Positions 1 to 51,316 of a stretch of DNA of 64,000 nucleotides are shown piece by piece. Source of the DNA: a virus; IMG/VR virus record IMGVR_UViG_3300029904_000002, positions 1-64,000 of that record, one strand, 5' to 3'. The notes under the pieces were generated by a model. The model was not told where the DNA came from and searched no databases. It saw nothing but the letters and a program-made list of their open reading frames with translations. A program made the position numbers and the translations under genes. The first letter of the stretch is position 1. Each line of letters begins with the position of its first letter.

Positions 1-18
1 CTGGGAAAGCATCTTCGA

Positions 19-90
19 TGGGCTATCGCCAAGCGGTAAGGCACAGGACTTTGACTCCTGCATTCGCTGGTTCGAATCCAGCTAGCCCAG
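19..90 (+). tRNA. tRNA-Gln (anticodon TTG)
   Basis: Hand-folded 72-nt cloverleaf: acceptor TGGGCTA/TAGCCCA, anticodon arm CAGGA-CTTTGAC-TCCTG, T-arm GCTGG-TTCGAAT-CCAGC. Confidence 0.85.
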
Positions 91-139
91 CTGATATGTA
101 GAGTAATTCCTCAAATCAATATGATGAACCTCAGTGAAA

Positions 140-152
140 GTATCGTCACTAA
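140..152 (+). promoter_or_regulatory. weak variant of the gAATCGTTAt promoter-like motif (GTATCGTCACTAA)
   Basis: ATCGTCA core as in the 1951 copy; 43 nt upstream of ATG 195; degenerate. Confidence 0.3.
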
Positions 153-194
153 GAAGGTCGAGAAAAGATGTAGTCATTAAGGAGATTGATGTAA

Positions 195-515
195 ATGAAA
201 AGAGTAATAAGAAGCAGTAAAGATCCTGACGTGATCAGAGATCTTACATACACTAAATCAGAATTAGGTGATCAGATACTTCCATATCTCTCAGATGCTG
301 AACATGAATTATCATTAAGGCATAAGATATGCAAGAGTGAGAATACCGTTGAATTTTACGAAGTCATAAAATCTGTAGGAGAAGTATTCTTAGATGATCT
401 AGATATAGATGACGTCAAAGATCACTTACATGATATATGGTACACAAATGAAGGTCTATCTAAATCGGATATCGTTCAAGATATAATAGAATATCTCAGG
501 GTGTCATTATATTAA
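195..515 (+). CDS. hypothetical protein, N-terminus MKRVIRSS
   Basis: ORF track 106 aa; GGAG 10 nt upstream of ATG; N-terminal octapeptide shared with ORFs at 1537 and 39043. Confidence 0.6.
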   Translation: MKRVIRSSKDPDVIRDLTYTKSELGDQILPYLSDAEHELSLRHKICKSENTVEFYEVIKSVGEVFLDDLDIDDVKDHLHDIWYTNEGLSKSDIVQDIIEYLRVSLY

Positions 516-526
516 CTTTTTCACCT

Positions 527-539
527 GCATCGTTAATAT
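527..539 (+). promoter_or_regulatory. gAATCGTTAt promoter-like motif copy (GCATCGTTAATAT)
   Basis: Intergenic, 12 nt after stop of 195..515, 30 nt upstream of small ORF ATG 569. Confidence 0.55.
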
Positions 540-568
540 GATTGTAGATAACATAGAAGGATATTCAC

Positions 569-688
569 ATGTCTCATTCACATAGAAAAATGCATGCATA
601 TGGAGAACGAGATCATGGAGGAAGCTACGTGTTAGATGATTATGAATTCTCTCATAATCATACAACTTCTGCAACTATTCGCAGATGA
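569..688 (+). CDS. small His-rich ORF, 39 aa (MSHSHRKMHAYGERDHGG...)
   Basis: Own translation; below the ORF-track cutoff; preceded by GAAGGA and a motif copy; could be non-coding. Confidence 0.3.
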   Translation: MSHSHRKMHAYGERDHGGSYVLDDYEFSHNHTTSATIRR

Positions 689-750
689 GAGAGAGGCATC
701 TTAAGAAGTATGACAGAAAAGCTTGTAAGAAACTTTGCAAATCAATTTTA

Positions 751-832
751 GCAGATATGGTGGAATGGTAGACACGGCAGACTCAAAATCTGCTGACCTT
801 GAGTCGTAAGAGTTCAAATCTCTTTATCTGCA
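751..832 (+). tRNA. tRNA-Leu (anticodon CAA), type II
   Basis: 82 nt: acceptor GCAGATA/TATCTGC, anticodon arm GCAGA-CTCAAAA-TCTGC, 14-nt variable arm, T-arm AAGAG-TTCAAAT-CTCTT. Confidence 0.85.
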
Positions 833-1020
833 TTACTTCAGCTTAGATGGTTTCTAAATCATGGGTTAGAATCTAAGTTTGAGTACGTAAACTCTGCACT
901 AGAGAACGATAAGTGGGTGCTCCGTTTAGAGTTGTTAGATCGAGTAAAGCAACAACCGTAAGTTTTCCTGTAGCTTACCTAACAAAAACTTGATGACACA
1001 TCGGAAAGACGATGGAGCTC

Positions 1021-1093
1021 GCTGGTGTAGCTCAATTGGCAGAGCAGCTGATTTGTAATCAGCAGGTTAAGAGTTCAAGTCTCTTCATCAGCC
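1021..1093 (+). tRNA. tRNA-Thr (anticodon TGT)
   Basis: 73 nt: acceptor GCTGGTG/CATCAGC, D-arm GCTC-AATTGGCA-GAGC, anticodon arm GCTGA-TTTGTAA-TCAGC, T-arm AAGAG-TTCAAGT-CTCTT. Confidence 0.85.
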
Positions 1094-1416
1094 AGTAGAG
1101 CTAATGGCCCACGTCTTTATAAGACGTCTTAAGGAAGCTTCTGCATTCGATGCAGGCTATGTCAAGAATGCAGCCGAAGGTGACACCGGATACAGTGGCA
1201 CAATCTGCGACATGTCAAGCAGTCACAATAACGGGTATAGCAGATGGCAGAAGGAAAGACTTCCGTAGTCTCGTGTGTAAGATTTCGTTATTGCTAGAGA
1301 TCTGAAGCGAATGGTAGGTTGCAGCCTGTTATAGCAGTAACAGGTGATTAATATGCAATACAAACTGATCACGTTAGAAATCAGGGTTATGGACTTGAGG
1401 CTTGTCCATAATGTAA

Positions 1417-1499
1417 GCGGATATGGCGGAATTGGCATACGCTGAGGACTTAAAATCCTCTGACTTCGAGTCATGTGGGTTCAAGCCCCACTATCCGCA
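1417..1499 (+). tRNA. tRNA-Leu (anticodon TAA), type II
   Basis: 83 nt: acceptor GCGGATA/TATCCGC, anticodon arm GAGGA-CTTAAAA-TCCTC, 14-nt variable arm, T-arm GTGGG-TTCAAGC-CCCAC. Confidence 0.85.
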
Positions 1500-1509
1500 T
1501 CGTTATAGT
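1497..1509 (+). promoter_or_regulatory. gAATCGTTAt promoter-like motif copy (GCATCGTTATAGT)
   Basis: Overlaps the last 3 nt of tRNA-Leu(TAA); 28 nt upstream of ATG 1537. Confidence 0.55.
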
Positions 1510-1536
1510 ATATGACAAAGATAGGAGGTGTATAAG

Positions 1537-1944
1537 ATGAAAAGAGTAATTAGGAGATCAATTCCAATTACAGGAGCTAAAATTCAATCAAAAGGAATCT
1601 TTTGGTACATTCCGGATGATGACAAATTATTAGCGTTTCCATATGATCCTGATCAGTTTCAGAATTCAATTTCTAGGAATGGTTTATCTTATACACACAA
1701 AAAGTTATGGCCTGAAATTTCTGGTAAACTCAAGAAATATCCATACAACTATTTTCCTAGAGGTAGAGTAGAAATTGATAATAAAGGAAGATCTGTAATT
1801 TATATGAATCCTAATATTCCAGATTCAGCTATTTCTGATATCCGATCTGAATTTGGAATAAGAAATGAATCATCTATCATAAAATACGATAGTAGTTCTC
1901 ATTATCTTTGTTATTTAGATGACAGATGGAAAGCTGATAAATAA
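1537..1944 (+). CDS. hypothetical protein, N-terminus MKRVIRRS
   Basis: ORF track 1528..1944; start moved to ATG 1537 (GGAGG at 1524-1528, 8-nt spacer); sits inside the tRNA array. Confidence 0.6.
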   Translation: MKRVIRRSIPITGAKIQSKGIFWYIPDDDKLLAFPYDPDQFQNSISRNGLSYTHKKLWPEISGKLKKYPYNYFPRGRVEIDNKGRSVIYMNPNIPDSAISDIRSEFGIRNESSIIKYDSSSHYLCYLDDRWKADK

Positions 1945-1950
1945 TTCTTA

Positions 1951-1963
1951 GCATCGTCATAAT
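1951..1963 (+). promoter_or_regulatory. promoter-like motif variant (GCATCGTCATAAT)
   Basis: 7 nt after stop of 1537..1944; next downstream gene is tRNA-Leu(TAG) at 2094. Confidence 0.45.
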
Positions 1964-2093
1964 AAGTGTAGAAAATAAATAGGTTGTAACCAAGATAGCT
2001 AGAATGAAATGCGAGTGTACTAGTTATCAAAAAGTTTTATAAAAAGATATTGAGAGATTCGCATACTTTCGATAAATCTTACCTATTTTACTT

Positions 2094-2174
2094 GCCGATG
2101 TGGTGTAAGGGAAGCCACGCTGGTCTTAGGAACCAGTGCCGCAAGGCGTGCAGGTTCGACTCCTGTCATCGGCA
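2094..2174 (+). tRNA. tRNA-Leu (anticodon TAG), type II
   Basis: 81 nt: acceptor GCCGATG/CATCGGC, anticodon arm CTGGT-CTTAGGA-ACCAG, 13-nt variable arm, T-arm GCAGG-TTCGACT-CCTGT. Confidence 0.8.
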
Positions 2175-2202
2175 TCCACATCTTATGATAATTCTACTTT
2201 CT

Positions 2203-2215
2203 GAATCGTTATAAG
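2203..2215 (+). promoter_or_regulatory. gAATCGTTAt promoter-like motif copy (GAATCGTTATAAG)
   Basis: Lies in the loop and 3' arm of a 10-bp inverted repeat CACATCTTAT (2177-2186) / ATAAGATGTG (2211-2220); tRNA-Asn lies downstream. Confidence 0.45.
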
Positions 2216-2450
2216 ATGTGTGAATAAAATATAAAAACTTTAGAAACATATTCAATAGGATTGATTCGGTGGATGTACATAGCTACAAAAGAAGTCGGTC
2301 AATTGAGAAATGTGCTAGTTTATACGATGTGTAACATATCAGCGTCAGTTACCTAGGCTGGTTTACTCGGGACACACATCTTAAGTTCTAGCAAAAAGCT
2401 TTACGCCTTTCAAATATGTATAATGACTGACTTAAAAAGTCAGTCATCAA

Positions 2451-2524
2451 TGCCTCATAGCTCAGAAGAGTAGAGCGCTTGACTGTTAATCAAGATGTCG
2501 CAGGTTCGAGTCCTGCTGAGGCAG
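2451..2524 (+). tRNA. tRNA-Asn (anticodon GTT)
   Basis: 74 nt: acceptor TGCCTCA/TGAGGCA, anticodon arm CTTGA-CTGTTAA-TCAAG, T-arm GCAGG-TTCGAGT-CCTGC; D-loop lacks the usual GG. Confidence 0.8.
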
Positions 2525-2792
2525 TTTGCTTGATAATCAGTTATCAAGCATAGGTACTTAGGTTTTGCCTATCTAAAGCTATAGTAGCCGAAGTGATTAG
2601 TAGGTGCAAAGATAGGTGTCTAATCGGGTTGAAATCTTGTTATTGTACCAAGATTCCGAAGACATAAAGGTACGTACAATATGATTAAGTTATCCTAGTT
2701 TGCTTAATCATTAAAAATAACTAGGTAGTTGCGGATCCTGTACTATCGCTAAATGCCGCTCAAGTTCAATACTAAAAGTTGAACATGATTTA

Positions 2793-2865
2793 GGCGGATT
2801 AGTCAAGTGGTCAAGACGACGCCCTTTCACGGCGTAAGCGCTCGGTTCGAGTCCGGCATCCGTCA
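2793..2865 (+). tRNA. tRNA-Glu (anticodon TTC)
   Basis: 73 nt: acceptor GGCGGAT/ATCCGTC (one G-U), anticodon arm ACGCC-CTTTCAC-GGCGT, T-loop TTCGAGT; one mismatch at the top of the T-stem. Confidence 0.7.
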
Positions 2866-3073
2866 TTTGCTCAAGTAACTGAGCAACTAATCAAATATAA
2901 CCATCTACGGTGTAGGCATATCAGTTACGTCCACGATATGCTGAGGTGTAAGAGGATGAATTGGGAAGATGGTCCGGAGGATGATTAGTTAAACGTTAGT
3001 CACACAATTGCTACTAGTGTGCACAGAGTCATTGAATGCAAACGATGGTAGCACATCGGCCATTGTCTCTGTA

Positions 3074-3142
3074 GGCAGTAGGTGTAAGGCGCACACGTAT
3101 ATCAAGGATATACGAGGGAAGGTTCAATTCCTTCTACTGTCA
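3074..3142 (+). tRNA. atypical 69-nt tRNA, anticodon unresolved
   Basis: Acceptor GGCAGTA/TACTGTC, 3-bp D-stem with loop AAGGCGC, T-arm GAAGG-TTCAATT-CCTTC. The anticodon hairpin GTATAT-CAAGG-ATATAC has only a 5-nt loop; forcing 7 nt gives TCAAGGA with C at position 33. Confidence 0.45.
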
Positions 3143-3364
3143 TCTGATTCTTGTCCGGTAGGTCCGAAGAATCAGGAAATGCGGATAACGTCAGATATGC
3201 AAGTGTCTGCAACGTAAACTTGAAGCATAAGTCTTGCAACTTATGTAGAGGCACGCTAAGTGGTGAGAGGTCAAAGGATCAGCTTATATGCGTAGCAAGT
3301 GATAGTATGCCTAAATCATTGAGTAAGCGACCTAGGAGCTGAAATATGATCAATACTATTGCGT

Positions 3365-3431
3365 ACATGTATAGTGTAGTGGTTAGCACACATAGAGATA
3401 TGTAGGAGTTGTTCGAATCGGCTTGCATGTA
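3365..3431 (+). ncRNA. tRNA-like element or tRNA pseudogene (anticodon loop reduced to a tetraloop)
   Basis: Acceptor ACATGTA/TGCATGT, canonical D-arm GTGT-AGTGGTTA-GCAC, T-arm AGTTG-TTCGAAT-CGGCT; anticodon position is ACATA-GAGA-TATGT; 67 nt. Confidence 0.45.
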
Positions 3432-3583
3432 TTGAGAATATCTATTCCAGATGAAGTCAAACTGGACATTATTGTATCATATGTGATGCATAAACGTGAT
3501 AAAATAGGGATCTAAGGGAGCTCCAACAAACAGCGGTCTATAATGTGATCGACCGTACAAAGTATAGATATTCTCATAATTAA

Positions 3584-3669
3584 GGGAGAGCGGTGATGAT
3601 GGCGGAATCACGGCAGACTGTAAATCTGTTACATTAGAAACGTTGCAGGTTCGACTCCTGCCTCTCTCA
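3584..3669 (+). tRNA. tRNA-Tyr (anticodon GTA), type II
   Basis: 86 nt: acceptor GGGAGAG/CTCTCTC, D-arm GTGA-(11 nt)-TCAC, anticodon arm GCAGA-CTGTAAA-TCTGT, 15-nt variable region, T-arm GCAGG-TTCGACT-CCTGC. Confidence 0.8.
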
Positions 3670-4033
3670 TTGAGGTAATCCTCACATGACGCATTGGGTA
3701 CAAAGTAATGCGTTGAAGGTCTAGACAAAATGTATAGAACATGTAATTATAACATGTTGCAAGGTTTGCAAAACTAGGCAAGTATGCATGTTAATTAAAT
3801 CTAATGGTAGAACCTTTGAAGTGTAAACATGTATTGAAACGTAATATATAAGTGAAAAATAGCTTAATTACGCGAATGTGAATATAGTACTTCATAAAAC
3901 ATAATTGAAATGTCTGATCAACATTCATGCATACGAATTTCAAATGAATAGGATGCATATCAAAACTGCATGGAGTGAAATTCATGTAGCTGTTCTCATA
4001 TAGAGGATATGCATCTGAAATTCTACAATAATT

Positions 4034-4107
4034 GGCTCTGTAGTTCAGTTGGTTAGAACGCTTGCCTGTCACGCAAGAGGTCGTCAGTTCGAATCTGATC
4101 AGAGTCG
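4034..4107 (+). tRNA. tRNA-Asp (anticodon GTC)
   Basis: 74 nt: acceptor GGCTCTG/CAGAGTC, D-arm GTTC-AGTTGGTTA-GAAC, anticodon arm CTTGC-CTGTCAC-GCAAG, T-arm GTCAG-TTCGAAT-CTGAT. Confidence 0.88.
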
Positions 4108-4109
4108 TT

Positions 4110-4195
4110 AGCTGTATAGTATAATGGTAGACGTCTAAAGATATCATTACACTCTATTGTTAAGAGAGATGCAAGTTCGATTCTTGCTGCAGCTG
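4110..4195 (+). ncRNA. tRNA-like element, 86 nt, non-canonical core
   Basis: Acceptor AGCTGTA/TGCAGCT and T-arm GCAAG-TTCGATT-CTTGC are canonical. The D region is weak, about 18 extra nt (4133-4150) follow, and the only anticodon-like hairpin is CTCT-ATTGTTA-AGAG. Confidence 0.4.
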
Positions 4196-4208
4196 GCTCA
4201 GAGATACG

Positions 4209-4275
4209 CCGGATGTTTTAGGGCGCTGGTGTAGGTCACCTTTAGGTGGAAGAGTTCGAATCTCTTAGGGTCCGG
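4209..4275 (+). ncRNA. tRNA-like element (T-arm plus closing helix only)
   Basis: T-arm AAGAG-TTCGAAT-CTCTT; closing helix CCGGAT/GTCCGG, extended by GATACG (4203-4208) / CGTATC (4284-4289); internal hairpin CACC-TTTA-GGTG; no cloverleaf found. Confidence 0.3.
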
Positions 4276-4309
4276 AACGCTAACGTATCTTGTGACAAAC
4301 CTATGACGA

Positions 4310-4384
4310 GGACCATTAGCTCAGTTGGTTAGCAGCATTTGTCTCATAAACAAAAGGTCCTGGGTTCGAGTCCCAGATGGTCCA
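4310..4384 (+). tRNA. tRNA with anticodon CAT (elongator Met or Ile2; not initiator-like)
   Basis: 75 nt: acceptor GGACCAT/ATGGTCC, anticodon arm TTTGT-CTCATAA-ACAAA (no GGG/CCC initiator signature), T-arm CTGGG-TTCGAGT-CCCAG. Confidence 0.8.
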
Positions 4385-4386
4385 TT

Positions 4387-4476
4387 GGGGTTACATAACT
4401 AGGATATGTTATGATCTACATGATTGAGCATGCTATACATCATGTAGATGATTCGGGTTTGATTCCCGAGCCCCTC
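4387..4476 (+). ncRNA. tRNA-like element with an 11-bp extended central hairpin
   Basis: GGGGTT/AGCCCC closing helix, T-arm-like CGGG-TTTGATT-CCCG, hairpin CATAAC-(8 nt incl. GG)-GTTATG, and an 11-bp stem ATCTACATGAT/ATCATGTAGAT with a 14-nt loop. Confidence 0.35.
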
Positions 4477-4515
4477 TCCGCTCGTTTTACATTTTGATAA
4501 GAAGGAGGAAACAAT

Positions 4516-4842
4516 GTGGAAACACGAAATGTGACGCAGTATCATGTTTATCTTCTAGTGCTAAACACATTCGGAAGAGCAGAAGAGGTGGGAATTGCTG
4601 CAGTTTCTACTGATTATGATCATCTTGTTAGCTGGTATCACGATCAGTTTGCAGAATCTAAATGGAGAGATGCTTCGGGATTCATCCATACTTTCAAGGA
4701 AGGCAGTCCTATAGAAAACTATAATCCTTGCTCGTCCATTGTTCTCAATCAATTAGGGTGTTTTGGAGACGGGATAAAAGATGAATGGGTTGATCAATCT
4801 TCATTTGAAACAATTCCAGGAAGATTTTATTTCTTAGGATAA
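4516..4842 (+). CDS. hypothetical protein
   Basis: ORF track 108 aa; GTG start 7 nt after GGAGG (4504-4508); the overlapping ATG 4514 frame stops after 6 codons. Confidence 0.5.
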   Translation: METRNVTQYHVYLLVLNTFGRAEEVGIAAVSTDYDHLVSWYHDQFAESKWRDASGFIHTFKEGSPIENYNPCSSIVLNQLGCFGDGIKDEWVDQSSFETIPGRFYFLG

Positions 4843-4866
4843 ATGGTATCACAGTATACCATCAAA

Positions 4867-4981
4867 AGGGGATTACGGTAATGGAATCCGCCAAATCTCG
4901 AGTTCTACTTTCTAGAAGATGAATGATGACAGAGGAGGGACTTGTATAACAAGTTTGATAGTTCGAATCTATCATCCCCTA
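4867..4981 (+). ncRNA. expanded tRNA-like gene, 115 nt
   Basis: Perfect acceptor AGGGGAT/ATCCCCT, D-arm CGG-TAATGGAAT-CCG, T-arm GATAG-TTCGAAT-CTATC. About 66 nt lie between the D- and T-arms, including hairpins TTCTA-CTTTC-TAGAA and ACTTG-TATAA-CAAGT. Confidence 0.5.
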
Positions 4982-5161
4982 TTAACTTAATTCATGGAGT
5001 ACAAGTGGTACCATTTGAAGGAGAGACTTGAAATCTCACACCCGTGGAGTTTACCCGAGGGAAATTTGAATTACAGTTACACGGAGTAAAGTAGCCATGC
5101 CCGTGTCAATACAACTGTACATTGTATTTGAGAAGCTTGCTAGCAGCACATGGTGAAGCCT

Positions 5162-5252
5162 GGAGGATTGTCCCAGTGGTATGAGGAACTGGAAACTGCA
5201 GTGATAAAAATTGTGACCAGAAAATGCGATAGTTCGAATCTATCATCCTCCA
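5162..5252 (+). ncRNA. expanded tRNA-like gene, 91 nt (paralogue of 4867..4981)
   Basis: Perfect acceptor GGAGGAT/ATCCTCC and a T-arm GATAG-TTCGAAT-CTATC identical to 4867..4981, D-arm TCC-(11 nt)-GGA; central CTGG/CCAG helix encloses 24 nt. Confidence 0.5.
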
Positions 5253-5408
5253 TTTAGAAAACCTAAAATACAAGGTCAACCCCATGTAGTCCTTTAGATG
5301 TACGTCAAAGTCTCTATAAAATAGAAGTGGGTCACAAGAACAGTTTAAGAAACTGCACAGTTATCGTAAGAATGGTCTGTTGCTAATTAAAACCTTGGTT
5401 TTCTATAA

Positions 5409-5497
5409 GCAGGATTACCCAAGTGGTTGAAGGGAGTGGTCTTGAAAACCACCAGGCGGATAGCATCCGTGCCAGAGTTCAAATCTCTGATCCTGCG
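5409..5497 (+). tRNA. tRNA-Ser (anticodon TGA), type II
   Basis: 89 nt: acceptor GCAGGAT/ATCCTGC, anticodon arm GTGGT-CTTGAAA-ACCAC, 20-nt variable arm with CGGAT/ATCCG stem, T-arm CAGAG-TTCAAAT-CTCTG. Confidence 0.85.
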
Positions 5498-5677
5498 TTT
5501 ACTTGTCAAGATCAACTATTCATACCTAGGCAATTTGAATAGAGAGTCTTAGGGAGACGATCTCCTACTTCGAGTGAAATAAAGAAGTGTGCAACATTAT
5601 GCGATATAGGTAGCTCTTATACGAATTGTGGAATATGATGCAGTCCACTGTATATTAGACGAAGACAAGTATTAAAT

Positions 5678-5831
5678 TTACATGTAGCTCAACGGTAGAG
5701 CATCCTGTATATCAGGAAGTGACGAATGATATATCAATAGACTGTTGATATGAATAAGTCAGATAAAATAATTGAATGATTTAGTCACAGGAAATTACTT
5801 CATAATCAAGGTTCAAATCCTTGCATGTAAA
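5678..5831 (+). ncRNA. interrupted tRNA-like gene, 154 nt
   Basis: Acceptor TTACATG/CATGTAA, canonical D-arm GCTC-AACGGTA-GAGC, T-arm CAAGG-TTCAAAT-CCTTG. TCCTG-TATAT-CAGGA hairpin is followed by a 70-nt insert closed by GTGAC (5719-5723) / GTCAC (5784-5788); CAGGA is repeated at 5713 and 5788. Confidence 0.5.
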
Positions 5832-6226
5832 TTAGAATACTAGAATAAAGGTCAAGGAAAGGTATCACCTGATAGACACCTAGACTACGTAGAAGGTAAA
5901 CCTGCATGTACGATCCAAAGTTCTATCTGATTCAGTATTCATCACAAAACCTGCCGTCAAGCCATTGCTTATTTTATCTACTATAGACGCACAAAAGTGC
6001 GATAGATGAATAGGCGAGGTGTAGTATATTAGGGTACAGTTCCGGCTTAAATTGACGTAAACCGTAAGCAGACGAGGACACAAAGTGAACAGTGCTATCT
6101 TCTCACAGTCGACACAGACCAACGGAGCTCGAATAAAGGTATCACTTAGTAGCGGAAACTCAAATCACTTACAAATGCTATTAAGTTCTGAGGGTCTTAA
6201 TAGAGAACTTCACACATTCCCGGTGA

Positions 6227-6269
6227 AGAGCTGATATTGATAGTTTTAGACTCTATTGATATCAGCTCT
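6227..6269 (+). terminator. 17-bp stem-loop at the end of the tRNA region
   Basis: AGAGCTGATATTGATAG / CTATTGATATCAGCTCT (2 G-U pairs), 9-nt loop, followed by TTTC; directly precedes a motif copy. Confidence 0.55.
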
Positions 6270-6277
6270 TTCACTAT

Positions 6278-6290
6278 GCATCGTTATATG
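6278..6290 (+). promoter_or_regulatory. gAATCGTTAt promoter-like motif copy (GCATCGTTATATG)
   Basis: After the 6227-6269 hairpin; 51 nt upstream of ATG 6341. Confidence 0.6.
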
Positions 6291-6340
6291 ATGTAGAAGA
6301 TAATATCAATGATTCAAGAGAATGTGAGGTATTTATTACG

Positions 6341-7054
6341 ATGACAAACAATTCTGTTTCAATAAATATGGATTCTGCATATCTTTTCAAGAAGGGAAAG
6401 AATGGAAGATTTGTTTCTTATGATGATTATGGTAAGGTAATTATTGCAGAAAATTGCATTAAACCTGGATACTACATGATAAATAAAATTGTTAGAGATC
6501 TTAAGAAGTGTTGCATAGTCGAAGTATCTGAAGAAGTGTTAGTTGATTACTACGAAGGAATGAGATATGATCAGTTCAAGAATCTTCTTAAGATGAGAGG
6601 ATATGAGATTGCTTATGAACTTCCTTTCAACAATCCTCATTCTAGAAGTTTACCAGTAGTCGAATATCAGATGGTTGCATACAATTCTAGATTGAATATT
6701 GTTATCATTACAGAAACATTTTCGTTGTATGATGAATATACATTCAATACCATAGACTGCTACTGTTACGGAACAAGTGTATTTGATAATATGAAAGCAC
6801 AGTTCGTAAGTCGTGGAGGTTCAGAAGAATGTGTATTCAATATTGGTACATATCATAATGTTACCTGGATAAAGCCTCTTCAGTTTGTAGAAAGCAGAGC
6901 ATGTAAAGATGCCGAGAAGGGTACTTTTGATCTTCCTAGTTGTTTTACATATGCAGATGATGATGTATGCAAACATCTTGATGAGTATAGGGATAGATTC
7001 TTAAGTTTGATTCCTGATGAACTCAGAATTTGGTTTAGATCTTATAAGGGGTAG
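6341..7054 (+). CDS. hypothetical protein
   Basis: ORF track 237 aa; no motif recognised. Confidence 0.7.
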   Translation: MTNNSVSINMDSAYLFKKGKNGRFVSYDDYGKVIIAENCIKPGYYMINKIVRDLKKCCIVEVSEEVLVDYYEGMRYDQFKNLLKMRGYEIAYELPFNNPHSRSLPVVEYQMVAYNSRLNIVIITETFSLYDEYTFNTIDCYCYGTSVFDNMKAQFVSRGGSEECVFNIGTYHNVTWIKPLQFVESRACKDAEKGTFDLPSCFTYADDDVCKHLDEYRDRFLSLIPDELRIWFRSYKG

Positions 7055-7058
7055 GTAA

Positions 7059-7244
7059 ATGGCAAAAGATAGAATTGAACCATGTAAATTTTATATTTGT
7101 GAAGGTCAGTGTACAAAGAATAGATCTGCAAGTCATAAAAGTTACTGCCAGAAATGTTCTAAGTATGTTCCTCGTGTACGCACGAAACATGCTAATCAGA
7201 AGAAGCAAAAGCTTGAGAAAATACGAGAAAATGAGGGGTACTGA
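7059..7244 (+). CDS. small basic Cys-rich protein (possible zinc-binding)
   Basis: ORF track 61 aa; CKFYICEGQC...CQKC plus a Lys/Arg-rich tail. Confidence 0.55.
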   Translation: MAKDRIEPCKFYICEGQCTKNRSASHKSYCQKCSKYVPRVRTKHANQKKQKLEKIRENEGY

Positions 7245-7247
7245 TGG

Positions 7248-7631
7248 ATGTGTGATGATACTGTATTATGGGAAGATCCTATAGATACTTATGATCTAGA
7301 TAAGTATTTTGGAGCTGCGGAAATAACTTCTAGACGATCAGGTCTTCCGATGAACATTCGATCTATTCATAGAACAGAAATTACGCATGATAGATTATGC
7401 TTAGAGCTCAGTGCAAATAGCCTTCATGTTGAGCTAGCAATGGGTTTAGAGTTATGTATCATCAATAGATCAAGACATATCACATTTCATGAATATGAGA
7501 TGATAGAAACATGTAGAACCTATATCCGACGTAATTTAGATTTATTTTACAAGCATCAATTAGATCTTACAGATAGCTTTGATGATAAAGATTTATTTGA
7601 TGCATTAGAAAGGAGAGGTGATTTTAAGTGA
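7248..7631 (+). CDS. hypothetical protein
   Basis: ORF track 127 aa; GAGGGG 9 nt upstream. Confidence 0.6.
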   Translation: MCDDTVLWEDPIDTYDLDKYFGAAEITSRRSGLPMNIRSIHRTEITHDRLCLELSANSLHVELAMGLELCIINRSRHITFHEYEMIETCRTYIRRNLDLFYKHQLDLTDSFDDKDLFDALERRGDFK

Positions 7632-7722
7632 AAAGAGTAGAAGGAAAGTATTCAACTGCAAAAATATTTACAGATAACGTAGATGATGGGTCTTAACAAT
7701 TTTAATATTAGGTGAATCATAT

Positions 7723-8586
7723 ATGGATAATAGAAGAAAGGGCTCTGTAACAGGGCGTATATGTATAACAGATGGAACCCATAATAAATTTGTACACGAA
7801 ACTGAATTGACTTACTATCTGAACAATGGGTGGAGAAAAGGAAGTTACAGGTATACAGGAGGTACAAAAATACCATGTAAAGTATGCGGTAAAATGATAT
7901 CTAAGTATGACGGTAAACATGGAATGTGCGCTAAATGTATGAAAGATACAGGATTCTATAAGAATCTATGGAAAGATGAAAATTATAGAAACAACGTTAT
8001 TTCAAGTTGTACGGGACTTAAGCGATCAGAAGAATTTAAGAAGAAACAAAGTGAACATATGAAAGAATACTATAAGAACCATCCGGAACGTAGACAAGCT
8101 CAGGGATTAGTATTCAGCAAAGCGTGGAAGGACGGTAAGCATGCAAAGATGACCGATACATATGGTATAACTAGAAGTATTGCTGAAAATATGATGTATG
8201 ATGCATTCCTTAAATTATTTGGTTCATATTATGTGTCCAGAAATCCTGTACAAGGTCCTGATGGGAGATGGTGTTATCCTGATGTGTTATTATTCGATTC
8301 TGTTATTGTAGAATATTACGGTGATTATTGGCATGCAAATCCACAGTTGTATCAATCATCAGATACATTAGCTAATAGTACTGCTCAGGATATTTGGAAT
8401 TCTGACGCAGATAGAGAAAAGCGTATTCTACAATCTGTAGTGAATGGATATAATAAATATATGTCTTCTATATCATCCATGATAATAATATGGGAGAGTG
8501 ATACAAGTCATCTTAAAACACAGAGTGATTGGGATGATTACATTGCAAATAGATTTGTAGGTTATGATGAACATGTATCTTGTTGA
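7723..8586 (+). CDS. free-standing homing-endonuclease-like protein (N-terminal DNA-binding/zinc module plus Vsr/DUF559-like PD-(D/E)XK domain)
   Basis: 287 aa; N-term ICITDGTHNKFV..ELTYYLNNGWRKG and CKVCG..CAKC; C-term YPDVLLFDSVIVEYYGDYWHANP resembles the Vsr/DUF559 nuclease core. Confidence 0.6.
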   Translation: MDNRRKGSVTGRICITDGTHNKFVHETELTYYLNNGWRKGSYRYTGGTKIPCKVCGKMISKYDGKHGMCAKCMKDTGFYKNLWKDENYRNNVISSCTGLKRSEEFKKKQSEHMKEYYKNHPERRQAQGLVFSKAWKDGKHAKMTDTYGITRSIAENMMYDAFLKLFGSYYVSRNPVQGPDGRWCYPDVLLFDSVIVEYYGDYWHANPQLYQSSDTLANSTAQDIWNSDADREKRILQSVVNGYNKYMSSISSMIIIWESDTSHLKTQSDWDDYIANRFVGYDEHVSC

Positions 8587-8640
8587 TATAAAGATAGCTG
8601 TTCTCAAACATTCTAAATATATCAGAAAGTAGGTGAATAC

Positions 8641-33264: not shown

Positions 33265-33374
33265 CAGGTACAAACATTGTACCTGATTATATATATCAAC
33301 TTTTCATAAGACCAGTTATGTAATAACCTTGACGTCCTGGTCTAAAACAAAAAATAATAGGAGGTAAATTGAAT

Positions 33375-34124
33375 ATGAATAAGTTGAAATCAACCATTGT
33401 CAGTGAGATAGAAGATTACAAAATTCTTCTTAGGAATGTTCCTGCATTGACGATGGTTTTCTTTGTGTTGAGTGTAGTGTTCATGAATGTGTTCGCCGGG
33501 AAAGAGCTAATAAGTGTGGAATATCTTGCTCTTGACTGTGGATTTATTTTATCATGGATGAGCTTCTTATGTATGGATATGCTTACAAAAAGATTTGGTG
33601 CAAAAGCTGCTATCAAATTATCACTCTTATCTGTATTTATAAATCTTATCTGTTGCTTGGTATTTTTTATTGAATCAAAGATTGGCAATAACTGGTCTGT
33701 ATTTTATAACTATAATGATCCTATTGCAAACGATGCACTTAATGATACATTTGGAGGTACTTGGTATGTATTACTTGGATCGACTATTGCAATGATTATT
33801 GCATCTGTTGTAAATGCTATCATAAATCAAGCAATCGGAAATCGTATGAAGAAAAATAATTTCTTTGCATATGCACTCAGATCTTATGTATCGACTGCTT
33901 TCGGACAGTTTGTAGATAATTTTGTATTTGCTATGATTGTATCTGTCACATTCTTTGGGTGGAATATGACGCAAGTAATTATGTGCTCTATCACCGGTGC
34001 TGCTTGTGAATTGTTAGCTGAAGTTATTTTTTCTCCTCTAGGATTTAAGGCATGCAGAAGATGGGAAAGTTATGGAGTGGGACAGAACTATATCGACTAT
34101 ATGAATTCACAGAAATCTGCGTAA
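33375..34124 (+). CDS. YhhQ/VUT-family queuosine-precursor transporter-like membrane protein
   Basis: ORF track 33369..34124; ATG 33375 lies 10 nt after GGAGG; multi-pass hydrophobic; MDMLTKRFG resembles the D..TE.YG motif of YhhQ; adjacent to the que operon. Confidence 0.7.
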   Translation: MNKLKSTIVSEIEDYKILLRNVPALTMVFFVLSVVFMNVFAGKELISVEYLALDCGFILSWMSFLCMDMLTKRFGAKAAIKLSLLSVFINLICCLVFFIESKIGNNWSVFYNYNDPIANDALNDTFGGTWYVLLGSTIAMIIASVVNAIINQAIGNRMKKNNFFAYALRSYVSTAFGQFVDNFVFAMIVSVTFFGWNMTQVIMCSITGAACELLAEVIFSPLGFKACRRWESYGVGQNYIDYMNSQKSA

Positions 34125-34129
34125 TATGT

Positions 34130-34142
34130 GAATCGTTATATA
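34130..34142 (+). promoter_or_regulatory. gAATCGTTAt promoter-like motif copy (GAATCGTTATATA)
   Basis: 6 nt after the transporter stop; 26 nt upstream of ATG 34168; heads the que operon. Confidence 0.6.
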
Positions 34143-34167
34143 CATACAGATAAAGGAGGTAATTCAT

Positions 34168-34317
34168 ATGAGTAAATCAGAGATGAAAAAGAAACTTCAG
34201 AATTTTATTGATAATCTTATGAAGGATTATAATGATAAACTTGAGTGTTTTGTAAGAGATGAAGATGATATGATTAGAGAATTCAAGTCTATCATTGAAG
34301 ATTCAGATGAGGTGTAA
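34168..34317 (+). CDS. small acidic protein, 49 aa (MSKSEMKKKLQNFIDNLMKDYNDK...)
   Basis: Own translation; GGAGG 8 nt upstream; below the ORF-track cutoff; first gene of the que operon. Confidence 0.45.
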   Translation: MSKSEMKKKLQNFIDNLMKDYNDKLECFVRDEDDMIREFKSIIEDSDEV

Positions 34318-34320
34318 TAG

Positions 34321-35013
34321 ATGAGAGTAGTCATAACTGGAGCTTCTAGAGGAATTGGTCGTGCATGTGTTAAAAAATTTCTTGATGAAGGCCACGAAGT
34401 ATTTGGAATAGATGTAGAGAATGATCTCTATGCATCTAAAATATATTTAGGAGATAAAGCAGGTAACTATACACATCATTGCAGAAATGTGAAGTCAGAC
34501 AGAGCTCTGCCTCAAATCAGATGCGTTGACATACTGATCAACAATGCGGGAACACAAGATAATGATGCTATTGATGTCAATCTCAAAGGGTTAATTAGAA
34601 CCACAGAGGAATATGGATTGCAACCAAATATTAAATCCATCTGTAATATGGCAAGTGTTTCTGCCCATAACGGTGCAGAATTTCCTTACTACGTTGCATC
34701 CAAAGGAGGAGTATTGTCATACACCAAGTGGACTGCAAAGGAAATTGCAAAATATGGTGCTACATGTAATAGCTTATCTTTTGGCGGAGTTATGACTGAT
34801 TTGAACCAGTCTGTAATAGATGATGACGAAGCTTGGGAAGAGATAATGTGTATGACACCACTGAGAAAGTGGATGACTCCTGAAGAATGTGCAGAATGGG
34901 TATATTTCTTAACTGTTATAAACAAGAGTTGCACTGCACAAGATATTGTAGTTGACAACGGAGAATTATTTAATCATACATTTGTATGGAGAGAAGAGGA
35001 GGATATTTTCTAG
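34321..35013 (+). CDS. short-chain dehydrogenase/reductase (SDR)
   Basis: 230 aa; [10 protein letters not shown] cofactor motif; catalytic S...YVASK (YxxxK); ends 2 nt before queF. Confidence 0.88.
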
Positions 35014-35014
35014 T

Positions 35015-35518
35015 ATGAGTAGAAGCAAAGAAGATTTAGGCAATGTAACGTCTTTAGGATCTAATAAAACAAAGTACCCTACAGATTACGATCCGAGCGT
35101 ACTTGAATATTTTATCAATAAGCATCCTGAAAGTGATTATGTAGTTTCATTTGATGCTTATGAATTCAGTAGCTTATGTCCTAAAACTGGACAGCCGGAT
35201 TTTGCAAAGGTTGTGATATCATATATACCAAATTCTAAAATGGTGGAGAGCAAATCACTAAAACTATATCTGTTTAGTTTTAGGAATCATGGAGACTTCC
35301 ATGAGGATTGTATAAATATCATTATGAGTGATTTAATTTCTCTAATGGATCCTAAATATATTGAAGTTAAAGGAATATTTAGTCCCAGAGGAGGAATTTC
35401 AATATTTCCATTTGTAAACTATGCAGACCCTAGATACCAATATCAGGAATTTGCAAAGCAGCGTCAGTTAGATGCATTAAGAGATGCATCAAACAGAACT
35501 GTACGTTATGATATGTAA
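35015..35518 (+). CDS. queF: NADPH-dependent 7-cyano-7-deazaguanine (preQ0) reductase, type I
   Basis: ORF track 34952..35518; start moved to ATG 35015 (167 aa); motif [14 protein letters not shown]. Confidence 0.88.
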
Positions 35519-35598
35519 TGGTTAATTCTGCACAAGACAGTGCTGTCACCCTAGCTTGTGCAGTCTTAATAAATATTAAAAACAGGAGGTTTCAAACT

Positions 35599-36309
35599 AT
35601 GAAACAGCGAAAAGCAATAGTATTGAATTCAGGAGGAGCTGATTCCACAACATGTGTAGGAATTGCAGTTGATTCTGAAAAGTACTCAGAAGTAGCTACA
35701 GTAAGTGTACTGTATGGGCAGACGCATCAGAAAGAACTCAAATGTGCTCAGAATGTGGCTAATCATTATCATCTTAATCACTATGAATTAGATCTTTCAT
35801 CTGTACTCAGGTTCAGTAATTGTTCTCTTCTTAAAGGAAGTACAGAATCAATCCCTGAAAAAAGTTATGCAGAGCAGATTGCAGAAAATGGAGAAGGTAA
35901 AGTATCAACATATGTTCCGTTTAGGAATGGTCTCATGTTATCCTCTGTTGCTGCACTAGCACAGTCGATTTGGTCCGAAGATGATGTAGATATCTTACTA
36001 GGAGCTCATGCAGATGATGCTGCTGGTAGAGCGTATGCTGATTGTAGTGAGGAGTTTACATCTGCGATGAATACTGCAATCATCATAGGAACTTACGGAA
36101 AAGTAAGAGTAGTTGCACCGCTTGTAAATATGAATAAAGCTGAAGTCATTAAAGCGGGATTGGACTTAAATGTTCCATATGAACTTACCACAAGTTGCTA
36201 CAAAGGTGGAGATAAAGCATGTGGAAAATGCGGAACATGTATTGATCGTCTTAATGCATTCCATGAAAATGGTGTAGAGGATCCTATTGAATATGAGGAG
36301 GATAATTGA
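35599..36309 (+). CDS. queC: 7-cyano-7-deazaguanine synthase
   Basis: ORF track 35518..36309; ATG 35599 behind GGAGG; SGGADS PP-loop; C-terminal zinc Cys cluster C..CGKCGTC. Confidence 0.9.
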   Translation: MKQRKAIVLNSGGADSTTCVGIAVDSEKYSEVATVSVLYGQTHQKELKCAQNVANHYHLNHYELDLSSVLRFSNCSLLKGSTESIPEKSYAEQIAENGEGKVSTYVPFRNGLMLSSVAALAQSIWSEDDVDILLGAHADDAAGRAYADCSEEFTSAMNTAIIIGTYGKVRVVAPLVNMNKAEVIKAGLDLNVPYELTTSCYKGGDKACGKCGTCIDRLNAFHENGVEDPIEYEEDN

Positions 36310-36311
36310 GT

Positions 36312-36641
36312 ATGTATTATGTAAGAAAAGAATTGGAAGTTTCAGCAGCACATAAATTGGAACTTGATTATGAATCTCCGTGCACAAATATGCATGGACA
36401 TAATTGGAAAATAACAGTATTTTGTAAGTCTGATGAAGTCAATCAAAACGGTATGGTTATTGACTTCAAGGAGATTAAAAAGTCTGTTCATGCAGTTATG
36501 GATCATAAATATCTTAACGATGTATTTGATTTCAACCCTACTGCAGAAAACATTGCAAAATGGATTGTTGATTCAATTCCATGCTGCTATCGAGCAGAGG
36601 TTGAAGAGAGCTCTAATAATTGGGCTGCATATGAGGAGTAG
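36312..36641 (+). CDS. queD: 6-carboxy-5,6,7,8-tetrahydropterin synthase
   Basis: 109 aa from ATG 36312; VSAAHKL..C..MHGHNWKI signature. Confidence 0.9.
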   Translation: MYYVRKELEVSAAHKLELDYESPCTNMHGHNWKITVFCKSDEVNQNGMVIDFKEIKKSVHAVMDHKYLNDVFDFNPTAENIAKWIVDSIPCCYRAEVEESSNNWAAYEE

Positions 36642-36647
36642 ATCGAT

Positions 36648-37304
36648 ATGGAAGAATTAATCAAAGTTTCTGAAATCTTTAGGTCCATAGATGGAGAGGG
36701 TATCCGAACAGGATACCCTGTAACCTTCATACGTCTATATGGATGTAATCTTAAATGTAGTTACTGTGATTCTTCATATGCAACTACATATGGTGATTAT
36801 ACATTGATGAGTATATCAGATATCGTAGAACATGTAGATTACTTTGGTTTACACAGAATCACATTAACAGGAGGAGAACCGCTTGCATGCGATCAATGTT
36901 ATGATTTGGTAACTGCATTAACTGATGCAGGATATGAAGTAAATATTGAGACTAATGGAAGTCTTTCAATACTTCCATATGTTGATATGAAAAATGTGAT
37001 CCTTACTATGGATTATAAGTGTCCTTCATCTAATATGGAAGATAGAATGAATAGATTGAATCTTCCTCTATTAAGATCAAAAGATGTTCTAAAGTTTGTA
37101 GTAGGATCTAAACTTGACCTATCAACTATGCTTGCAGTGGTTAATGGATATGATATTAGTGCAAACATCTTTGTTAGTCCCGTATTTGGAGAGATAGATC
37201 CTAAAGAAATTGTAGATTTTCTTATCTGTAATGAAGTTGAAAATGTTCGTATTCAACTTCAGTTGCACAAGATAATTTGGGATCCAAATATGAGAGGAGT
37301 GTAA
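36648..37304 (+). CDS. queE: 7-carboxy-7-deazaguanine synthase (radical SAM)
   Basis: 218 aa; CNLKCSYCDS cluster motif; position between queD and folE. Confidence 0.88.
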   Translation: MEELIKVSEIFRSIDGEGIRTGYPVTFIRLYGCNLKCSYCDSSYATTYGDYTLMSISDIVEHVDYFGLHRITLTGGEPLACDQCYDLVTALTDAGYEVNIETNGSLSILPYVDMKNVILTMDYKCPSSNMEDRMNRLNLPLLRSKDVLKFVVGSKLDLSTMLAVVNGYDISANIFVSPVFGEIDPKEIVDFLICNEVENVRIQLQLHKIIWDPNMRGV

Positions 37305-37307
37305 GAT

Positions 37308-37934: not shown

Positions 37935-37937
37935 TAT

Positions 37938-37950
37938 GAATCGTTATTAA
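37938..37950 (+). promoter_or_regulatory. gAATCGTTAt promoter-like motif copy (GAATCGTTATTAA), nested in a terminator
   Basis: 4 nt after the folE stop; its 3' end forms the base of the 37949-37979 hairpin; 49 nt upstream of ATG 37999. Confidence 0.55.
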
Positions 37951-37980
37951 GTGTGATACATGCGATATGTATCACACTTT
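37949..37980 (+). terminator. 12-bp stem-loop with T tail
   Basis: AAGTGTGATACA-TGCGATA-TGTATCACACTT, then TCTTTAT. Confidence 0.65.
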
Positions 37981-37998
37981 CTTTATGGAGGAGTGAAT

Positions 37999-51311: not shown

Positions 51312-51316
51312 TAAGA

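Follow-up and report, generated by a model that had tools for sequence, protein, structure and literature searches.

The tRNA array at the start of the stretch analysed here (64,000 nucleotides (nt) of virus DNA, IMG/VR virus record IMGVR_UViG_3300029904_000002, positions 1 to 64,000; this whole stretch is called the window below) contains eight tRNA-shaped elements, E1 to E8, and on balance we consider it probable that these loci are genes for selected, processed, non-decoding tRNA mimics. They retain the 'top half' and elbow of a tRNA, i.e. the acceptor and a T arm with T54-T55-C56-A58, mostly together with U8, A14 and G18G19, and carry in place of a normal anticodon arm either a 4-5-nt loop on a lengthened stem or extra helices. 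In none of the eight does a stem of 5 base pairs (bp) carry a 7-nt loop that has both U33 and purine 37, and for that reason they are not ordinary tRNAs. Moreover, compensatory substitutions across related phages are found in E1, E2, E3, E4, E5, E6 and E8, and at least seven of the eight elements appear to be under structural selection. More specifically, the alignments point to at least E1, E2 and E4 as core, structurally selected components of the array across a whole group of human-gut phages. The elements are built as follows (MFE, minimum free energy).

E1, 3074-3142, plus strand: 7-bp acceptor; 1-nt linker and short D arm GTGT-AAGGC-GCAC; 7-bp 'anticodon' stem with pentaloop CAAGG; 3-nt variable region; canonical T arm GAAGG-TTCAATT-CCTTC; the MFE fold is a cloverleaf.
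Hairpin 3' of E1, 3144-3175, plus strand: CTGATTCTT...AAGAATCAG with an inner stem; conserved, with no T run after it.
E2, 3365-3431, plus strand: 67 nt; canonical acceptor, U8, D arm GTGT-AGTGGTTA-GCAC and T arm.
E3, 4110-4195, plus strand: lies 2 nt behind tRNA-Asp; D loop enlarged by an 18-nt insertion; acceptor and T arm both canonical.
E4 with its outer stem, 4201-4291, plus strand: core 4209-4277; hairpin CACC-TTTA-GGTG in competition with a pairing GGTG...CACC; T-arm-like AAGAG-TTCGAAT-CTCTT; 6/7 acceptor extended to 9 bp; outer 8-bp stem 4201-4208/4284-4291.
E5, 4387-4475, plus strand: four-way junction (MFE) 2 nt after tRNA-Met; 5-bp acceptor-like stem; 6-bp arm; 11-bp arm with a 14-nt loop holding the palindrome GCATGC; T-like arm TCGGG-TTTGATT-CCCGA.
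E6, 4867-4981, plus strand: 115 nt, class-II-like; acceptor, U8, 3-bp D stem with GG loop, canonical T arm; expanded central domain with the inner hairpin TTCTA-CTTTC-TAGAA and a variable-arm hairpin ACTTGT-ATA-ACAAGT.
E7, 5162-5253, plus strand: 92 nt; stem CTGG/CCAG around a 24-nt loop.
E8, 5678-5831, plus strand: 154 nt; perfect acceptor, canonical D arm GCTC-AACGGTA-GAGC, canonical T arm; hairpin CCTG-TATAT-CAGG, an extra domain of about 70 nt closed by GTGAC/GTCAC, and an A/U-rich linker (MFE fold).

The first-pass annotation had described eight non-cloverleaf tRNA-shaped elements at these positions next to eleven ordinary cloverleaves, and both counts hold. A strict scan, which required a 5-bp T stem, a TTCRAnn loop and 7/7 acceptor pairs within a span of 60-160 nt, yielded 16 matches on the plus strand of 1-6300, namely ten true tRNAs together with E1, E2, E3, E6, E7 and E8. 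The same scan gave no match on the minus strand of that region, none on either strand of the remaining 57.7 kilobases (kb) and none in 300 dinucleotide-preserving shuffles, which places the elements far beyond chance (16 against 0). The claim that acceptor and T arm are intact is borne out for these six and holds less well for E4, with 6 of 7 acceptor pairs, and for E5, with a 5-bp acceptor and the loop TTTGATT, both of which lie outside the strict scan. The D arm and core (U8, A14, G18G19 and a D stem of 3-4 bp) are present in E2, E3, E6, E7 and E8 and absent from E4 and E5; E1 has a 4-bp D stem with GG, and its linker is a single nucleotide (G or A at position 8). The short loops that had been listed are all there (CAAGG in E1, GAGA in E2, TTTA in E4, CTTTC in the inner hairpin of E6, TATAT in E8). 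The anticodon arms are likewise aberrant, with a correction for E3, where a 7-nt loop ATTGTTA sits on a 4-bp stem and the large insertion is in the D loop and not in the anticodon arm. Finally, E4 and E5 are not plain tRNA copies, E4 being enclosed in a longer helix and E5 being a four-way junction.

Standard annotation tools handle these loci poorly. ARAGORN reports 12 tRNAs in 1-8000, all on the plus strand; 11 are canonical and the twelfth, the only one of the eight elements that default settings pick up, is E7 with an aberrant fold ('Val(aac)', 5161-5253, 93 nt, with A33 and an unpaired 26-nt 'variable arm'). The Rfam tRNA model recovers ten of the 11 canonical tRNAs, tRNA-Tyr being the exception, and no tRNA match was obtained for E7. 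It scores 41.2 bits on E3 by jumping the 18-nt insertion and 41.7 bits on E8 by jumping an insertion of 84 nt; these two exceed the gathering score in a short-region search only, and the match of E1 to tRNA-Sec is at chance level. The first-pass annotation had allowed that software might find ordinary cloverleaves in the eight loci, and neither ARAGORN nor Rfam gives one. Rfam searches of the array region and of the whole window returned no transfer-messenger RNA (tmRNA), YrlA, group I or II intron, ROOL, GOLLD or T-box, and only chance-level microRNA (miRNA) and snoRNA matches. In addition, a scan of the array for sigma-70 promoters and terminators gave counts that did not exceed those in shuffled sequence.

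The comparisons below cover one phage clade with 15 human-gut phage arrays. The protein encoded at 6341-7054, immediately behind the array, served as anchor; its homologues are 64-98% identical and led to the arrays in contigs L001, L002, L005, L007, L010, L013-L016, L023, L024, L028, L029 and L034; the relatives are contigs of 158-163 kb from human-gut metagenomes. Scans of IMG/VR with ORF 4516 (ORF, open reading frame), the E2 sequence and an upstream S1-domain protein returned nothing or two contigs already found, and a metagenome scan with the anchor-protein alignment returned two known contigs and relatives of 40% identity that have no tRNA array. The arrays share the order Asn-Glu-E1-E2-Tyr-Asp-(E3 or a 112-nt family X)-E4-Met. 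An accessory block, E5-ORF4516-E6-E7-Ser-E8, is found in the window, in L005/L006 and in L034/L035, and E6 occurs additionally in L007, L008 and L014. As a control, the true tRNA-Met of these arrays has 99% of its alignment cells paired and 10 of 21 pairs doubly changed, with an invariant loop. A truly decayed tRNA-Thr in L015 (6371-6423) has its D arm deleted and its anticodon loop intact. The first-pass annotation had argued that random decay would not be expected to spare the acceptor and T arm so consistently, and the alignment of orthologous arrays backs this with compensatory changes in 7/8 elements, the same signature as that of the true tRNA-Met.

The clearest case is E1. A covariance model based on five sequences of this element detects exactly one copy per array in 14 arrays, and the E1 of L034 is an identical copy, which brings the total to one E1 in each of the 15. 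Four allele types can be distinguished by their acceptor strand (GGCAGTA/GTTAGTA; GATAGTA; GGTTACT in two versions). Their stem sequences differ almost wholly, and yet the architecture is constant: a 7-bp acceptor, a 1-nt linker, a 4-bp D stem with a GG-containing loop of 4-5 nt, a 7-8-bp stem with a pentaloop, a variable region of 3-4 nt and a canonical T arm. Among the pentaloops (CAAGG, CACGG, CAGGG, AAGAG, GAGAG) A2 and G5 are invariant. The alleles of the type found in the window (W-type), in an ungapped MAFFT alignment, have 100% of cells paired with 6 of 23 pairs doubly changed, a degree of pairing reached by none of 500 shuffles, and slid controls give zero; in a hand-made structural alignment of nine alleles 207 of 211 cells pair, and compensation is seen in 16 of 24 pairs. 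Upstream of E1 the window and L007/L023 have almost the same flanking sequence as far as the first base of the element, from where E1 and about 100 nt downstream of it are replaced, and E1 alleles therefore move as cassettes. In L010, E1 is kept even though its flanks have diverged beyond alignment. The element stands apart from both ORFs and tRNAs, 208 nt after tRNA-Glu and 223 nt before E2. The hairpin behind it is swapped jointly with E1 in the other alleles, and L005/L029 keep its stem through a change from T-A to G-C.

A search with the E1 D-arm and T-loop pattern in IMG/VR and 185,579 genomes gave four matches in unrelated contexts, none with the pentaloop arm. The short D arm of the E1 type (GGTGTA-M-GG-H-GCACA) is also seen on an unrelated viral contig, where the element that carries it has no acceptor and precedes tRNA-Phe/Met by 8 nt (L036, 311-375, minus strand), in a Saccharibacteria metagenome-assembled genome (MAG; L038, 4226-4277), where it belongs to a tRNA-like element upstream of tRNA-Met, and in a real 70-nt tRNA-Met(CAT) of a gammaproteobacterial MAG (L039, 90-159, minus strand). 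E1 may descend from a tRNA with such a D arm. Pairing of the E1 loop with the 3' end of 16S rRNA was considered and dropped, as by eye the CAAGG allele alone fits.

In E2 the anticodon and variable region have shrunk to 17 nt (ACATA-GAGA-TATGT). Its acceptor, D and T stems are 100% paired in the alignment, and the body is either invariant or compensated; the T stem AGTTG/CGGCT, for example, reads GAGTG/CGCTC in L002, which amounts to three double changes. The central 17-18 nt, on the other hand, are hypervariable (ACATA-GAGA-TATGT, ATGTG-TAACC-CACAT, CAT-CCAAGT-ATG, CAT-CGTAGT-ATG). In every array that has it, E2 lies 5' of tRNA-Tyr, with a minimum gap of 5 nt. E4 is kept in all ten arrays compared, and RNAalifold supports 31 pairs of which ten are doubly changed; when the W-type is compared with the other type, both the T-like stem and the outer stem show compensation. 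The loop in most relatives is TTAGATT or TTAAATT and lacks C56, because of which we regard E4 as a conserved structured RNA that is loosely tRNA-like.

The anticodon stem of E3 has 4 bp (CTCT/AGAG) and its loop ATTGTTA carries a pyrimidine (T) at position 37. In L015 the stem has changed to CTTC/GAAG, a compensatory change, with the loop unaltered. The top half of E3 is nearest to tRNA-Asn, and ARAGORN calls it only when an 'intron' is allowed. The place of E3, which it holds in the window, L005 and L015, is filled in other arrays by family X (L001 9302-9413, L007 9243-9354, L010 9219-9330 and others), a four-way junction of 112 nt in the Asp-Met interval. It combines the acceptor and T arm of a tRNA with a further T-arm-like hairpin, TCCGG-TTCAACT-CCGGG, where the D arm would be, and a compensated hairpin TAACAG-AATT-CTGTTG precedes it. 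Further unusual forms occur elsewhere in the relatives: at the Thr position L007 has a 'tRNA-Ile(aat)' with the pentaloop arm GTAAC-AAATT-GTTGC (6039-6113), L001 has a 64-nt element without D arm and with the pentaloop GCGCG (7982-8046), and at the Glu position ARAGORN labels an element as tRNA-???(tc) in L023 (824-898) and L024 (4456-4530).

For E5 a compensated pair in the 11-bp stem was found in L034 (4416C>T with 4447G>A). In the same contig the loop palindrome (4427-4432) has changed from GCATGC to GTATAC through 4429C>T and 4432G>A and is still a palindrome; this single event is the pattern that would be expected of kissing-loop dimerisation or of a site for a dimeric protein. A terminator-like hairpin (4467-4484, CGAGC...GCTCG followed by TTTT) overlaps the T stem and the acceptor 3' strand of E5, 30 nt before ORF 4516, and is mutually exclusive with the E5 fold; such sites are not more frequent in the region than in shuffles. 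E6 has a homologue of 118 nt in L007/L014, in which the acceptor, the variable-arm hairpin and the T stem have three doubly changed pairs apiece. E7 shares a nearly identical T arm and acceptor 3' strand with E6, and its top half is nearest to the adjoining tRNA-Ser. In the E8 of L005 the D stem has a C-G to U-A change (compensated) and the loop TATAT reads TAGAG.

How would such elements come to be released? RNase P, RNase Z and the CCA-adding enzyme read the elbow and acceptor, and long non-coding RNAs (lncRNAs) use tRNA mimicry for the maturation of their ends (PMC4810234). Neither the 11 true tRNAs nor the eight odd elements encode CCA, and a T directly follows the discriminator in nine of the 11 true tRNAs and in E1, E2, E6, E7 and E8. 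A T in that position is the usual substrate context of RNase Z in Firmicutes. The spacing is tight, with 2 nt from Asp to E3, 2 nt from Met to E5 and 5 nt from E2 to Tyr in relatives. In addition, the motif ATCGTTATA occurs 16 times in the window when one mismatch is allowed, against 6.6 expected, with 15 of the sites on the plus strand; most precede an ORF by 30-90 nt. The motif probably serves as promoter element for a sigma factor of the phage itself, and a sigma-factor gene lies upstream of the array in relatives. Between 2204 and 6279 the motif is absent, which suggests one long precursor. Considering that the conserved parts are those that the processing enzymes read, that the spacing is tight and that there is probably one precursor, we infer an excision similar to that of tRNAs.

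In this scheme the odd elements would be co-transcribed with the true tRNAs and recognised by host RNase P and RNase Z via acceptor, T arm and elbow. Their excision would give discrete, stable and probably CCA-tailed small RNAs, and the same cuts would set the ends of the neighbouring tRNAs, of the hairpin RNAs and of the small mRNA 4516-4842. As they have no single-stranded anticodon loop, the released RNAs would be of no use to the ribosome and would escape cleavage by anticodon nucleases, and it is most likely the tRNA body through which they would work, mimicking a tRNA towards some tRNA-binding factor of host or phage and binding it. Such a role would suit a phage lineage exposed to defences that target tRNAs, as RtcB is encoded beside the array in relatives. 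From the explanations offered in the first-pass annotation, tRNA-scaffolded RNAs released by RNase P and RNase Z would fit the anatomy best.

Several points weigh against this interpretation. Processing, stability and CCA addition of the odd elements are what we infer from the sequence. The comparative evidence comes from that single clade of 15 arrays, and most double changes stem from a few lineages, i.e. L010 for the W-type E1, L002 for E2 and L034 for E5. The nine-allele alignment of E1 is biased towards the structure because it was fitted to the structure by hand. E7 has one substitution in L005 and none in L034 and is uninformative for covariation, and E4 may belong to another kind of structured RNA. 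The analysis identified no partner protein. Moreover, the window keeps a mere remnant of RtcB, consisting of the first 22 codons (7628-7693) and the last nine (8603-8629). Finally, selection for the folding of processing signals alone could yield the same covariation.

The last point leads to the rival that survives best, although we consider it rather unlikely, namely that the elements are cis-acting punctuation only: RNase P and RNase Z sites that cut the array transcript, the excised pieces being functionless by-products. Precedents are the tRNA punctuation of mitochondrial transcripts and the 3' end of MALAT1. The layout is in line with such a role, since ORF 4516-4842 is bracketed by E5 and E6, E3 and E5 abut Asp and Met, E2 abuts Tyr in relatives and a conserved hairpin follows E1. 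The free variation of the central arm of E2 next to the invariant, enzyme-read parts, the stretch without ATCGTTATA and the use of tRNA mimicry in lncRNA end maturation (PMC4810234) point the same way. However, the 11 true tRNAs already supply such sites, and E1, the most universally kept element, adjoins neither an ORF nor a tRNA. Furthermore, RNase P and RNase Z need no more than the acceptor-T minihelix and the elbow; the lengthened E1 stem with two invariant loop bases in four divergent alleles and the large domains of E6 and E8 are left unexplained by punctuation.

A second alternative, which we hold to be unlikely, specifies the function: the elements would be anti-defence decoys, nuclease-proof tRNA bodies that titrate a host effector recognising the tRNA body or the acceptor end. 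Candidate effectors are anticodon nucleases, toxins of the nucleotidyltransferase or acetyltransferase type that act on the acceptor end, and collateral RNases of the Cas13 type. The usual cut site, the single-stranded anticodon loop, is gone in every element and the body is kept; the divergent E1 cassette alleles at one locus and the hypervariable arm of E2 are what an arms race would lead one to expect. In addition, L005, L023, L028 and L034 encode RtcB, a repair ligase for cleaved tRNAs whose role in phages has been reviewed (PMC7824862), and its gene follows the array at a distance of two or three genes. The lineage therefore seems to meet tRNA-cleaving defences, which makes a role as decoy or sponge attractive. 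In the window the middle of RtcB has been replaced by an unrelated ORF of 287 amino acids (aa) at 7723-8586, apparently a cassette swap at a tRNA-repair locus; the ORF has no Pfam or PDB match, and its single-sequence structure model has a predicted local distance difference test (pLDDT) score of 33.

The first-pass annotation had proposed decoys or resistant variants aimed at anticodon nucleases, and RtcB in the relatives lends this indirect support. Against it, known anticodon nucleases read the anticodon loop that these RNAs lack, a closed loop of 4-5 nt is no anticodon-nuclease substrate, and a resistant decoding tRNA would keep its 7-nt loop. True tRNAs (Met) show mosaic alleles equally, and the alleles are thus not specific to an arms race. 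The more far-reaching version is that the E1-type RNAs, defined by a full tRNA body, a 7-8-bp stem, a conserved NANRG pentaloop and several cassette alleles, form with their companions a class of anti-defence RNAs that is new for phages: tRNA bodies, nuclease-proof because they have no anticodon, which would bind tRNA-recognising effectors or toxins of the host and neutralise them. This is a speculative proposal to which we attach a low probability. If true, RNA decoys would be the analogue of protein anti-defence genes, alongside replacement tRNAs and repair by RtcB.

It is very unlikely that the elements are pseudogenes or recombination debris, i.e. tRNA genes damaged by deletion, insertion or recombination at the T arm that persist because they are young or neutral. 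The arrays are indeed highly mosaic products of recombination. Window 4024-5254 and L005 7768-9000 are 99.6% identical within flanks of about 85%, and the 3' end and flank of E6 (window 4960-5096) are homologous to those of tRNA-Asp in L007 (8889-9025) and also in L028, which suggests exchange at T-arm sequences. The T arm that E6 and E7 have in common, the resemblance of E3 to tRNA-Asn and of E7 to tRNA-Ser and the lack of covariation support for E7 would be expected of debris. An HNH endonuclease gene lies inside the L028 array (527-970), and T4 SegB cleaves DNA at the T-psi-C stem-loop of tRNA genes (PMC2330249). Because of the mosaic nature of the array, the density of mismatches in elements versus spacers (window against L034) is uninformative. 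Nevertheless, compensatory changes in 7/8 elements, the presence of E1, E2 and E4 in essentially all arrays despite anchor identities of 64-98% and the retention of E1 in L010 amid unalignable flanks speak against debris. For E1, E2 and E4 the data accordingly contradict the 'recent pseudogenes' of the first-pass annotation; for E3, E5, E6 and E8 they weaken this explanation, with which E7 is still compatible.

Least probable of all, and hardly credible as a general account, is that E3, E6, E8 and perhaps E7 are decoding tRNAs in disguise, with short introns or insertions whose flanking halves are joined, for instance by RtcB, to give tRNAs of the Asn or Leu type: ARAGORN with introns allowed does call E3 as Asn (15 nt), E8 as Leu(tag) (71 nt, stem CCTGT/ACAGG) and E6 as Leu(cag) (36 nt), E3 and E8 exceed the Rfam tRNA gathering score, and RtcB, the tRNA-splicing ligase of archaea and animals, adjoins the array in relatives, but the inserts (15-84 nt) are too short for group I and match no Rfam intron family, the introns fall at positions 31-34 instead of 37/38 and leave non-canonical spliced loops (with T at 37 in E8), the E6 model is mismatched and destroys the compensated variable-arm hairpin, none of the about 50 window ORFs scanned is a splicing endonuclease, an enzyme that to our knowledge is not known in bacteria, the window has all eight elements yet lacks RtcB, and its array already has Asn and Leu(tag). 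The non-canonical positions and loops were the grounds on which the intron reading was rejected as the principal one.

The window is a phage genome segment with almost every gene on the plus strand, and INPHARED holds no close sequenced phage, its matches being to individual tRNAs only. The remaining features are these.

Canonical tRNA genes, 19-5497, plus strand: Gln 19, Leu 751, Thr 1021, Leu 1417, Leu 2093, Asn 2451, Glu 2793, Tyr 3584, Asp 4033, Met 4310, Ser 5409.
Small ORF, 4516-4842, plus strand: 108 aa, between E5 (38 nt upstream) and E6 (25 nt downstream).
ATCGTTATA sites: 1498, 1952, 2204, 6279, 8901, 13469, 32711, 34131, 47363, 50047, 58598, 59769 and others.
Replication set encoded in the window: DNA polymerase A, DnaB-like helicase, primase, clamp loader, RecA, NAD-dependent ligase, ThyX.
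Other products encoded in the window: tail and baseplate proteins, a GH25/CW_7/LysM endolysin, whose CW_7/LysM parts point to a host that is Gram-positive, and a 7-deazaguanine (queuosine-precursor) gene set.

The small ORF has no match in Pfam or PHROG, and its homologues are confined to the relatives of this phage. The best Rfam match of tRNA-Tyr(GTA) at 3584-3669 is to tRNA-Sec, at 31.9 bits and below threshold; its D stem, GTGAT/ATCAC, is unusually long. A nearly perfect hairpin of about 22 bp (GGTGAAGAGCTGATATTGATAG...CTATTGATATCAGCTCTTTCAC, 6209-6263) lies between E8 and ORF 6341, is kept in relatives and may be the end of the array transcript; the Rfam match to 'mir-8536' at this place was judged spurious. 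The 7-deazaguanine (preQ) pathway is complete at 33369-38811 and 51284-51757, with a YhhQ-like transporter (Vut_1), a short-chain dehydrogenase, QueF, QueC, a radical-SAM QueE-like protein and GTP cyclohydrolase I, followed further on by QueD/PTPS. It could be used for DNA modification or for Q-modification of tRNAs. The core-array tRNAs Asn, Asp and Tyr belong to the Q family, and the loop of E3 holds UGU.

The arrays of tRNA genes in phages are now mostly interpreted as codon supplements or as a means to replace tRNAs that host defence systems destroy. In the array of the window, non-decoding genes make up 8 of the 19 tRNA-shaped genes. Standard annotation misses such elements or mislabels them ('tRNA-Val(aac)', 'tRNA-Ile(aat)', 'tRNA-???'), and phage tRNA counts and the codon-usage arguments built on them can therefore err. 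If the elements act as decoys or cofactors in tRNA-centred conflicts, they would represent a new kind of RNA-based counter-defence. A description of anticodon-less tRNA mimics in phage arrays was not found in the literature, in a search of incomplete coverage in which absence is no proof.

Several known systems share parts of this anatomy. Murine gammaherpesvirus 68 (MHV68) encodes eight clustered tRNA-like RNAs (vtRNAs, TMERs) that are processed, CCA-tailed and not aminoacylated, and that are followed by hairpins released by tRNase Z. E1 and the hairpin 3144-3175 have the same layout. However, MHV68 is an animal virus that uses RNA polymerase III promoters, and its hairpins are miRNA precursors, which belong to a pathway without bacterial equivalent. 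The mascRNA of MALAT1 and its MEN-beta counterpart are tRNA-shaped with a reduced, non-decoding anticodon arm, are processed by RNase P and RNase Z and CCA-tailed, and the cut matures the neighbouring RNA. Their acceptor, T arm and elbow with a reduced anticodon arm are the anatomy of E1, E2 and E4; on the other hand, they are eukaryotic, single-copy and located at a lncRNA 3' end, whereas the phage elements lie in a tRNA operon. The tRNA-like domain of tmRNA likewise keeps acceptor and T arm with a long helix in place of the anticodon arm. The odd elements have neither G3-U70 nor a tag reading frame, though, and for tmRNA there was no default ARAGORN call and no Rfam match in the window, a lowered threshold giving implausible permuted calls only. 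Both ends of YrlA RNA lie in its Ro-binding stem and its acceptor-like stem is closed, whereas the odd elements have their ends at the acceptor and lack an Rfam match to it. It is a non-coding mimic of the T arm, D arm and acceptor of tRNA and is encoded beside RtcB in enterobacteria (PMC4201824); a TROVE/Ro gene was not seen among the about 50 window ORFs scanned. Lastly, a large comparative screen of IMG/VR reported 'tRNA or tRNA-like' candidate RNAs in phages, some of them highly expressed in small-RNA data from the human gut (PMC10690425). These come from the same environment and are objects of the same kind, but the screen describes neither the anatomy of anticodon-less classes nor a link to the contigs studied here.

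The elements are best placed as an addition to a known, unexplained kind of molecule, the tRNA-like stable RNAs of phage tRNA clusters, among which species 1 RNA of T4 (rnaC) is the closest. It too lies in a phage tRNA cluster, on the tRNA strand and close to its neighbours, with 1 nt between tRNA-Arg and rnaD and 6 nt between rnaD and rnaC in the T4 record. The RNA is 139 nt long, has a canonical T arm CCGGG-TTCGAAT-CCCGG (CCGGGTTCGAATCCCGG) beside the 3'-terminal strand and carries extra helices in place of the anticodon domain, which is the plan of E5-E8, its nearest counterparts. It differs in its acceptor of about 3 bp, in the absence of a recognisable D arm (in the fold made here) and in having no sequence similarity to the elements; T4 has one such RNA (rnaD is without T loop) versus eight here. 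For the short-loop class (E1, E2, E4) we know of no T4 counterpart. Thus species 1 RNA, a puzzle of 50 years' standing, now has a comparative handle in families with alleles, covariation and distinct architectures.

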